Shown here one piece after another: positions 1 to 3,000 of a stretch of DNA of 64,000 bases; the first letter of the stretch is position 1; every line of letters starts with the position of its first letter. Made by a program: the position numbers. The DNA is from Escherichia coli (GTDB lineage Bacteria; Pseudomonadota; Gammaproteobacteria; Enterobacterales; Enterobacteriaceae), in the NCBI RefSeq assembly GCF_030384885.1, contig NZ_CP128613.1, one strand, 5' to 3'.

Positions 1-3000
1 GCCTCTTTTAATTCTCTTGCTAAACGCATTTTCCACCCTTCATTAGAGTCTATTTTTTCATACGTAATACCAAGAGCATCAGTTGGAATTTCGATATCTC
101 CCTTTATGAGAACCATTGTTTTTTCTCTACCTAACAATGCGGTAAAATATCCAAGTTCGAGAATGACATTCTGACGGGCTCGAAGGCTTTTATTTTGCTC
201 ATTGTTAATCGGGTATCCATAATCATCGGGAGTCATCAAGATTACTGCAAAACCCGCTCTTTTTGCAAACTCCTGAAACTTTTCAATTATGGTCATTCCT
301 TTGTTTATTTGCTCTTGTAAAATGACGGGTTCAACGCCCAGTTTTTCTAGAAATCTCGCAACTGAATGTTTTGTGCCTTCATCATGACCATGAACTAAAA
401 AAACTGAATTACTTTCAGGTAATTCGGTTTTTAATTCTGATTCATCAAATTTTTCGGCAGTGAATACACCTTCAGTTCCAATGCTAGATCTCCATTTACC
501 TCTTAATTTATTATTATTGACTAAGCTACAAATTACCGTAACTTTCCCTAACATAACCATCGGGTTTTTATTTCCGGGAGTTAGTTCAATAAACAGGTTT
601 TCGCTTATTTTTCCTGAAATACTGTATTCATATGCTCCAAGTGCAAGTTCATGTATCTTCGCTGAACCGCTTACATTATTACCGTCTACATTTAGAGTAA
701 AACTAATCCCACCTTGGTTGGTTCCGGAGATATCACCAGTCCAATAGCCTGAATATACATCATTTAGCATATAACTCCCCTCGCGATAATATTCCATGTG
801 AATGTTTTATTATTGCAACATACGTCGGATCGTAGCGTAATTATCAATTTAGTATACATTCGAAAAAACGTTTAGCCTTCAACCTCCATTATTTCACTAT
901 TTACAGTAATCAGTCCACTCATCCATCAGTGCCACCCGCTTAGGCCATAACGTCCCACGTTGATACGCAGCCTCTGCCTTATCTGCCAACTGGTGAGCTA
1001 ACGCATGTTCAATTACTTCACGCGGGTAGTTGGTCGTTTCACCAGCCCAATCACGGAATGTCGATCTAAAACCATGCTGCGTTAAATCTGTGTATCCCAT
1101 TCGTTTTAGGACTGCCAGTAAAGCCGTATCCGAGAGTTGTCCCTTCCGAGTGGCAGGGAATACAAAATTGATACCCTTAAAGCGTGGTAAAGCCTTTAAC
1201 AGGACAACAGCAGCATCAGACAGAGGAACTCGATGCTCCTTCGCTGCTTTCATTCGGCTTGCAGGTATGGTCCACGTTTTACCTTCAAGATCGATCTCTG
1301 ACCACTCGGCACCACGAATTTCTCCTGAGCGTGCCGCGGTCAGTATGGCAAACTCAAGCGCACGAGGCGAAACGCCGCTTCGTTCACGTAGTTCTTTCAT
1401 AAAGGAGCCGATCTGGTTATAGGGAAGAGCGGCATGGTGCTTGGTGATCTGAACTTTACTTGGCTGAGGCAACAGAGGTTTCAACATACCTTTCCATGCG
1501 GCAGGATTATCACCTTCAAAGTATTCTTTGGCCTTAGCGTAATCAATCACCGTTTCAATACGTCCACGTAGACGACTGGCGGTTTCATTCTTGGTTAACC
1601 AGATAGGTTCCAGTATTGCCAGAAGATCCACTTTGGTGATTTCACTAACGGCCTTTTTGCCAATGAAAGGGTAGGCATAGGTCTCCAGTGTGGAACGCCA
1701 TTGAGCGAGATGTTTTTTGTTCTTCATCTCACTGTCTTTGACTTCCAGCACTTCTTCACAACACTCGGCAAAGGTCTTTTTCTTCCGGGCCAGTATTTCC
1801 TGCCGGGATTTTTGCTCGTGTTTTTCTTGAAGGGGATTAATACCATTACGGATTTGTTTACGTAGCTCACGCGCTTTGTCACGCGCTTCGGCTAAGGAGA
1901 CTTCCGGGTAAGGGCCAAGCCCCATATTCAAACGTCTTGGAACTGTTCTACCGAGATTGTTGATTCGGGTTCCCATAGCTACACAAAGAACCCATGCACG
2001 GGACTGATTCCGGATGCGAAGGTATAAACCATCCACACCACCTACGGCATACATACCTTCGGATTTTAATCGTGATACGACGAGTCCTGAGAGTTCCTTG
2101 GCCTTCTTTGGCATAGCAAAATCCTGTCATACAACCCGCCATACATACGGTACTGCATAAAATAGCTGATTGTTTGCACAGTAGCAATACACTACCGAAC
2201 AAAAAAATAATGACAATATTTTGTTTTTAAAGGAAAAATAGCACTTGGGTGGGCATTATCGAACACTAAAAATTTAGACCCTCTCTCCGCCACTTTATCA
2301 ATGACTTATCTCCTAACTTCCCGCCTTGCTTTTTCTTAACAGAACAATCGTAGAATATTCTTGAAGGGTTAGATCGTCACTGTTTTCTGTTCGATACTGT
2401 GACATTCAGCACTTGATTCGCTATGGATCAGACAGGAAGGTTTCGAGCGAAAATCTACTGTTATTCAGTCGTTTTCTTATCGGTCACCATTATTCTTCTC
2501 ATCTTATGCTTTAGATATTGATCCTATGAAACCGATGTTACGTTAGTGGGCGGGAACTGAAGTTACGGAGTAAAAGGGTTAATAATTGAGCCAAAAAAGG
2601 AACGCGGCCGTCAGATTAAAGCCGCGGGACAAAGTCCATAATTTCCAAGAGTTGTTGAATTTCCCAGCTTTTTTGAAAGCCTTTGTATCATACTAACAAG
2701 TAAAAAAGGTTTAAATACCAAAATTAACCTATATTTCTGGTTAGCTTTACCATGACAGATGACTTGCTCCTGGAGACATTGGCGCTACCAGTCTGTATTG
2801 GTGAGTTGTGTATTTATTGTTCGCCGTTTCCTCAGTTTTTTTCTACAGACATAATAAAAAAGACACGTCTCAAGCATGAGCGTGTCTGAGTTTGTCTTAT
2901 TTATTTGTCTTGGTAAATTATTGTCGTTACTACCAGGCACTGTTCTGTTAAATAACTGAAGTCAGCGCAAAAAAATCAATGAGACATCATCTCCTCGACC

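Follow-up and report, generated by a model that had tools for sequence, protein, structure and literature searches.

A stand-alone barrel-TIR gene in the cargo slot of an Escherichia serU island is a candidate single-protein defence system

A barrel-TIR gene beside an island integrase

We analysed a 64,000-nucleotide stretch of Escherichia coli contig NZ_CP128613.1 (assembly GCF_030384885.1), referred to here as the window, which begins inside a gene that joins a predicted beta-barrel to a TIR domain and that we call the barrel-TIR gene. It occupies positions 1..770 of the minus strand, where an ATG at 770 starts a reading frame that stays open for 256 codons up to position 1. The closest database protein, P0001 of Klebsiella pneumoniae, is 97% identical and 267 amino acids long, so the window gene, which holds codons 1-256 of 267, is without only the last 11 codons and the stop. 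The encoded protein starts with an N-terminal domain (residues 1-107; 450..770, minus strand, as for all parts of the gene) that is predicted to form a soluble eight-stranded up-and-down beta-barrel. A flexible linker (residues 108-121; 408..449) follows, for which the predicted local distance difference test score (pLDDT) drops to about 52 in the block 111-120 of a model with a predicted template modelling score (pTM) of 0.54. The linker leads to a CAP12/Pycsar-type TIR domain (residues 122-241; 48..407), which has a beta-hairpin insertion at 183-197 and the predicted catalytic Glu205 (codon GAA, 156..158) in the motif RQNVILELGYF, and the part of the protein within the window ends in a conserved C-terminal helix (3..47; residues 242-256 here, continuing to 267).

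Direct reading of the sequence finds a Shine-Dalgarno-like GAGGGGAG at 775..782 of the minus strand, 4 nucleotides upstream of the ATG. Further upstream, a consensus scan places a sigma-70-like match (TGGACT, an 18-nucleotide spacer, TG-AATAAT) at 888..917 of the minus strand, inside the 3′ end of the neighbouring integrase gene; this is a pattern match only, from a scan with fewer matches than in shuffled sequence, and the candidate could give the barrel-TIR gene its own transcript. The integrase itself is a 405-residue tyrosine integrase (897..2114, minus strand) with the Pfam domains Arm-DNA-bind_3, Phage_int_M and Phage_integrase, a set that we take to mark the P4/CP4-57 type, and the GC content of window positions 1-1000 is 0.37-0.38. 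An earlier note on this DNA had described a TIR-like minus-strand gene starting at 770, cut by the window edge and lying next to an integrase as AT-rich cargo. The reading frame, the motifs quoted for it, the base composition and the integrase domains all agree with that description.

The C-terminal module is related to the TIR effectors Cap12 and PycTIR

Residues 123-241 match the Pfam family PF10137 (CAP12-PCTIR_TIR) with E 2.9e-37 and 127.8 bits over model positions 2-118 of 119, whereas the generic TIR_2 model reaches only E 0.026 on the same protein; the assignment to the CAP12/PycTIR type made in the earlier note is thus borne out by a full-length match in a profile hidden Markov model search. 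Searched with a profile built from 119 full-length homologues, the solved structures yield just three relatives, namely the Cap12 TIR-STING protein 9lmq (E 2.5e-8), Cap12 7un8 and PycTIR 8jsj. Glu205 aligns with the glutamate of NVVFEFG in both Cap12 structures and is invariant across the 119 homologues, as had been expected of a conserved catalytic residue. The structure model has the flavodoxin-like TIR fold, and its beta-hairpin at residues 183-197 corresponds to the distinctive mark of the CAP12/Pycsar TIR clade in a phylogenetic study, which also describes the TIRs of this clade as NADases that require the catalytic glutamate and oligomerisation (10.64898/2026.04.30.722052). The helix that follows the domain (residues 245-267) has G245, W246, A251, E253 and L254 invariant in the homologue alignment, is helical over 245-256 in the model and lies inside matches to PADLOC PDC-S35 and phrog_16442; it is part of the same module as the TIR domain. 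Judged from these alignments and the predicted fold, the C-terminal half belongs with the NAD+-depleting TIR effectors.

Among solved structures, the nearest in both sequence and fold is Cap12, the TIR-STING effector of CBASS (Sphingobacterium faecium SfSTING, 7UN8 and 9LMQ). Both proteins are of the PF10137 clade, and they share the catalytic glutamate, the beta-hairpin insertion and the presence of sensor and TIR in one chain, where the barrel is the candidate sensor of the window protein. In Cap12, however, a C-terminal STING domain binds c-di-GMP made by an adjacent CD-NTase, whereas the barrel of the window protein is N-terminal and no cyclase is nearby. PycTIR of Pycsar (8JSJ) likewise has a PF10137 TIR, as an NAD+-depleting effector switched on by a ligand-binding domain of the same chain, but that domain binds cyclic nucleotides and a pyrimidine cyclase is encoded next door, neither of which applies to the window gene. 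A third likeness is to TirC of Dictyostelium, a CAP12/Pycsar-clade TIR acquired from bacteria that is an oligomerisation-dependent NADase with a catalytic glutamate; it too is small and carries its TIR at the C-terminus, together with a short N-terminal regulatory element, but it comes from a eukaryote, and in place of an N-terminal barrel it has one hydrophobic helix. An identification of the window protein as Cap12 or PycTIR itself was considered and ruled out: Pfam finds no STING, SAVED or cNMP-binding domain in it, the NCBIfam Cap12 equivalogs, whose cut-off is 450 bits, reach 39 and 34 bits, over the TIR part only, and the PADLOC PycTIR model matches the TIR part only (E 1.3e-8).

The TIR domain with its C-terminal helix is also matched by five models of the PADLOC single-gene candidate PDC-S35 (1e-41 to 2e-62). 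These align over residues ~86-256 only, for example at profile positions 110-252 of 264, leaving their N-terminal ~60-124 positions unmatched; PDC-S35 and the window gene both consist of a single gene, and their N-terminal parts differ. The view of the earlier note that no named system fits holds for the whole architecture, of which a literature search returned no description, but not for the C-terminal module, which PADLOC already holds as the PDC-S35 candidate. The effector module is known, and it is the input domain, used widely across output types, that is undescribed.

The N-terminal half is predicted to be a soluble beta-barrel

In the structure model a short N-terminal helix precedes eight antiparallel strands (residues 8-107, pLDDT ~90) that close into an up-and-down barrel, after which the low-confidence linker leads to the TIR domain. 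The N-terminus of about 110 residues had been noted as free of known motifs, and indeed the barrel region is unmatched in Pfam, NCBIfam, PADLOC and PHROGs, also when the barrel alone is run against PADLOC and PHROGs to E <= 10; a hydropathy scan finds no hydrophobic segment anywhere in the protein. Foldseek matches of the barrel are to designed ligand-binding barrels, lipocalins and NHBA, with Cap15 absent from the top 50. The modelled fold is that of small-ligand-binding barrels, and the fold alone names no family.

A set of barrel residues is kept in all the classes of barrel protein described below: W10, G12, G16-T17-N18, G20, G35, G45, Y49, G53 and P65 in the first part of the domain and G75, G91, W93, S95, G98-T99, G101 and F103 in the second. 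The polar members T17, N18, S95 and T99 fall in the turns between strands 1 and 2 and between strands 7 and 8, which in a barrel of the up-and-down kind lie at the same pole, opposite the linker.

An eight-stranded soluble barrel is likewise met in the S-2TMbeta proteins Cap15 and OptE (PF18153), effectors of CBASS and Panoptes whose barrel binds cyclic dinucleotides. Cap15 and OptE carry two N-terminal membrane helices, whereas the relatives of the window barrel have the barrel N-terminal and any membrane helices C-terminal, in reversed order. According to the Panoptes paper, fusion to two membrane helices is obligate for Cap15-type barrels, which are paired with a cyclase; the window barrel type, unlike these, also occurs joined to TIRs, to NTPases and to a kinase, and stands alone.

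Conservation and selection

Comparison of the window gene with the K. pneumoniae copy gives a synonymous divergence (dS) of 0.53 and a non-synonymous divergence (dN) of 0.015, and the resulting dN/dS of 0.028 indicates strong purifying selection. The TIR half differs by 42 synonymous and 0 non-synonymous changes. The barrel half differs by 20 synonymous and 9 non-synonymous changes, and synonymous divergence per site is 0.46 in the TIR half against 0.28 in the barrel half, a difference that gives a hint of recombination in the history of the two halves.

Barrel-TIR genes stand alone

Ten independent homologue contexts were compared for shared neighbours. The gene lies in an island of K. pneumoniae, among housekeeping genes in Opitutus terrae, in two different P2-like prophages (one of Erwinia, one from a metagenome), beside a ParE toxin-antitoxin pair in Methylovulum, beside a BrnT/BrnA pair in Zoogloea, on a metagenome contig, in a small HNH-containing islet, directly after dnaA-dnaN-gyrB and followed by DUF4917 and Bro-N genes, and on a Verrucomicrobia contig. 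No neighbour gene recurs across the ten, a ThsA-like partner included, and in none of them does a CD-NTase or pyrimidine cyclase gene adjoin the barrel-TIR gene. In both P2-like prophages the barrel-TIR gene is the sole insert between the tail genes S and V. The Klebsiella island is 85% identical to window positions 1-1241, including the integrase 3′ end, and there the gene downstream of barrel-TIR is a convergent pilV. The earlier note had suspected that partner genes lie beyond position 1; with 11 codons remaining, the convergent pilV in Klebsiella and no recurring neighbour, that expectation finds no support, and the comparison shows a gene that stands alone, without a dedicated partner.

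Several of these contexts deserve separate mention. The two prophage copies lie at 8001-8804 of the Erwinia loci L007/L008 and at 6001-6804 of the metagenome locus L053; the position between S and V is, we presume, the site of the unexplained orf30 in phage P2, and may be an overlooked cargo hotspot of P2-like phages. The copy after gyrB (locus L055, 7009-8007) is from an Oxalobacter-like genome and sits in a small variable islet at the replication-origin gene cluster, together with the DUF4917 protein, which we take to be SIR2-like. In K. pneumoniae only the integrase 3′ end is left, annotated as a 94-residue open reading frame (locus L001, 9542-9900; locus L002, 9315-9599), and that island copy thus appears immobilised.

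Barrel and TIR module are shuffled in both directions

The barrel is described in no domain library, and besides the CAP12-type TIR it is joined to six or more further kinds of output domain. A barrel-only profile searched against 1.84 billion cluster representatives matches 429 proteins at E <= 1e-3, 209 of them at E <= 1e-10, and the barrel begins within the first five residues in ~112 of 128 representatives. To define partner classes, the C-terminal portions were clustered for those 92 of the listed representatives that are 200 amino acids or longer. The commonest class (49 representatives, ~345 residues; model pLDDT 92, hydropathy) continues into an alpha/beta domain and then three hydrophobic helices, and looks like a reversed-order counterpart of the Cap15-type effectors that join a barrel to the membrane. 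The CAP12-type TIR of the window gene comes next (17 representatives, PF10137), followed by a second TIR-like or Nuc_deoxyrib_tr-like class (8; PADLOC effector TIR, Pfam), KAP P-loop NTPases of 710-1070 residues related to QatA/PifA (6; Pfam, PADLOC, NCBIfam), ThsB-like TIRs (4; PADLOC ThsB E 6.5e-24 for P0133) and a class of 221-439 residues (4), of which the examined member has hydrophobic segments by hydropathy scan. Single representatives carry a PD-T4-6-like Ser/Thr kinase (PADLOC E 1e-50) and a DUF4062-TPR protein (Pfam, PADLOC PDC-S60), and three others are singletons, two of them with hydrophobic segments in the same kind of scan. Within the ~345-residue class the middle alpha/beta domain has no Pfam match and the three helices are C-terminal; one example (locus L045, 1411-2439) adjoins a ParE/Phd pair and two integrases.

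In the other direction, the TIR module occurs with unrelated N-termini in 1,164 plasmid records (617 Klebsiella, 368 Escherichia), a hypervirulence plasmid among them. In an IMG/VR scan, each of the 30 viral loci recovered had the TIR module without the barrel. This two-way shuffling suggests that barrel and TIR are the sensor and effector parts of single-chain immune proteins. An output set of membrane helices or TIRs is the one seen for SAVED, STING and cNMP receptors.

The serU island and its cargo slot

E. coli 2013C-4282 is 100% identical to window positions 3000-9000 and carries the locus with the island absent, in the order zinT, tRNA-Ser (serU), mtfA, tRNA-Asn (asnT) (NZ_CP027579.1, 504744-507234). 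Homology to this empty site (99.9%) starts exactly at window position 2279, inside the last 14 nucleotides of serU; the 14-mer CCCTCTCTCCGCCA at 2279..2292 of the plus strand is unique in the window, backbone DNA extends rightward from it, and ARAGORN finds no intact tRNA in window positions 1-8000. The start of homology, the single serU remnant and the lack of an intact tRNA together place the island in the 3′ end of serU, with its right end, as read from the sequence, at about 2278. The backbone had been taken in the earlier note to continue with yodB and mtfA; instead the island is in serU, in a lineage without yodB. This gene, which in NS-NP030 lies between zinT and serU, is present neither in the window nor in 2013C-4282. 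Only 2 of 5,426 complete E. coli genomes are at least 99% identical to window positions 3000-9000, whereas 5,394 are 90-95% identical, so the window stems from an Escherichia lineage that is divergent.

The same integrase (97% DNA identity) is found at this locus in 420 of the 5,426 genomes, and similarity always ends just past its stop codon. The slot between integrase and pilV holds different cargo in each of the five E. coli genomes examined: a 337-residue hypothetical protein in L1PEag1; an AAA ATPase and HNH endonuclease pair, presumably Septu-like, with further genes including MvdC/D ATP-grasp genes in MS1170; a 606-residue hypothetical protein in 95-3322; a 567-residue protein with a dsDNA-nuclease domain in NS-NP030; and a 175-residue VOC-family protein in 2016C-3878. 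Past the slot lie pilV, a type IV pilin gene, traD and a MobQ relaxase gene, after which the L1PEag1 island has Drt5, a DUF4238 protein, RepL and AlpA. By its gene content the island is an integrative mobilisable element whose cargo slot is variable and rich in defence genes. That slot is a cargo hotspot, filled by the barrel-TIR gene here and in Klebsiella, and offers a convenient natural catalogue of candidate defence cargo for both Escherichia and Klebsiella.

A model for the barrel-TIR protein and its alternatives

We propose a model in which the barrel-TIR gene encodes a self-contained, single-protein abortive-infection defence that depletes NAD+ upon phage infection, a reading towards which we lean with somewhat more belief than doubt. 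The effector module, comprising the TIR domain and the C-terminal helix, would be kept inactive until the N-terminal barrel registers a trigger, the likeliest being a small molecule or nucleotide that is gained or lost in the course of infection by phage. Once triggered, the protein would self-associate through its TIR domains, as Cap12 and PycTIR do, Glu205 would hydrolyse NAD+, and the infected cell would halt growth before phage release. The gene itself travels as exchangeable cargo next to the integrase of the mobilisable serU island; in P2-like prophages it is found as a lone insert. The mobile-element contexts are consistent with such a role in defence. Of this account, the analysis shows the identities of the domains, the conserved glutamate, the lack of a partner gene, the cargo position on mobile elements, the strong purifying selection and the two-way shuffling of the domains, whereas NADase activity, activation through oligomerisation, sensing by the barrel and the defence phenotype are inferred.

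More tentatively, and with clearly more doubt than belief, the barrel may represent a new family of immune receptors that read a small molecule directly, for example a nucleotide or metabolite made or depleted by the phage, without a signal synthase, and that evolution has connected to outputs that disrupt membranes or deplete NAD+ and to kinases and NTPases. On this view the barrel-TIR protein would be the single-gene counterpart of an entire CBASS or Pycsar pathway, or else a guard of the Panoptes kind whose bait is a housekeeping metabolite. Until now, effectors of the CAP12/Pycsar TIR clade were understood in one role only, at the output end of pathways that first synthesise a nucleotide signal, and here the same module is found alone. 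Were the barrel a ligand sensor, it would constitute a new receptor class, and its ligand would reveal what cells read directly as a sign of infection. A gene that is this small (267 amino acids), autonomous and highly conserved is an easy experimental target.

Several observations weigh against our model, which comes from computation on sequences and predicted structures, not from experiment. Many of the conserved barrel residues are glycine or tryptophan and may be purely structural. Between Proteobacteria, Verrucomicrobia and Planctomycetes the identity is 57-73% in both domains, an unusual degree of conservation for an immune sensor; that the barrel is so conserved agrees more readily with a small ligand that stays the same than with a phage protein that evolves fast, but this is only an argument. 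The barrel also heads KAP NTPases and a TPR protein, which could have sensors of their own, so the barrel need not be the sensor, and some copies of the gene lie among housekeeping genes (Opitutus; after gyrB). A literature search found no paper on PDC-S35, which is an unvalidated PADLOC candidate. DNA like window positions 1-912 was found in none of the 5,426 complete E. coli genomes, sensitive mode included, and with no E. coli match the Klebsiella ortholog stood in for the sequence past position 1. Finally, kinship with the nucleotide-binding barrel of Cap15 and OptE is unproven. Starting from the OptE sequence of V. navarrensis (VnOptE), given in the supplement of the Panoptes paper, alignments of relatives were built, and hhalign returned a probability of 13.6% for the narrow barrel profile against OptE and 23.5% for the broad one; PF18153 has no match to the window protein even at E <= 10, the Cap15 structure 7n34 was not recovered by an hmmsearch of the PDB, and a widening profile search from the S-2TMbeta side had only close OptE relatives among its best 120 matches.

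Four other explanations fit the genomic contexts less well than our model does. The first is that the protein is an orphan effector whose barrel is the receptor for a cyclic nucleotide made by a cyclase elsewhere in the genome (CD-NTase, Pycsar, mCpol or Cas10), so that it would eavesdrop on another system, or back it up, instead of sensing phage itself. We think this unlikely, as no cyclase lies beside any of the ten homologues, mobile cargo that depends on a host cyclase would fail after transfer, and sequence homology to S-2TMbeta barrels is undetectable.

A second explanation, to which we give a lower probability still, is a non-immune role, either as a toxin that serves the mobile element through addiction or exclusion, or as an enzyme acting in NAD or nucleoside metabolism under the control of a metabolite that the barrel binds. 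The relatives by sequence, however, are the NADase effectors Cap12 and PycTIR and not metabolic enzymes, no antitoxin-like partner is conserved, and defence genes are typically found in such places as the insert position in P2-like prophages and an integrase-proximal variable slot whose other cargo includes nucleases and ATPases.

The barrel might instead act as a homotypic adaptor that docks the TIR onto a barrel-bearing KAP or STAND NTPase, which would do the sensing, like the effector-associated domains of bacterial conflict systems. That the same barrel heads the 710-1070-residue KAP NTPases and the DUF4062-TPR protein speaks for this idea, and in architectures of the KAP NTPase or TPR type N-terminal domains are usually effectors or adaptors. 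We nonetheless consider it improbable, given that no barrel-NTPase gene lies near any examined barrel-TIR gene, that the single-gene prophage inserts favour autonomy and that the largest partner class joins the barrel directly to membrane helices in one chain. Least of all do we expect a Thoeris-like arrangement, in which the TIR makes a messenger derived from ADP-ribose for an effector encoded beyond position 1: some barrel fusions do carry ThsB-like TIRs (such as P0133), and the window ends 11 codons before the stop with any local downstream gene outside it, but PF10137, the clade of the window TIR, consists of NAD-depleting effectors, no ThsB model is among the PADLOC hits of this TIR, pilV is convergent downstream in the 85%-identical Klebsiella island, and no ThsA-like or other partner recurs in the ten contexts.

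Other relatives of the TIR module

Viral relatives of the TIR module on IMG/VR contigs have a ~60-80-residue N-terminal domain with the motif NGxxxNxxxTGKxxxQGK, which to our eye resembles the N-terminal substrate-binding domain of RNase HIII. By analogy, such an N-terminus would suggest a nucleic-acid-sensing variant. A 299-residue relative of the module (48-50% identity) with another N-terminus is encoded on the E. coli IncF plasmid CP090276.1 and on K. pneumoniae pSGH10 (locus L013, 3277-4456; locus L014, 3271-4450), beside pifA/pifC or a P-loop NTPase gene. It is preceded by an overlapping 96-residue open reading frame, with which it may form a two-gene unit.

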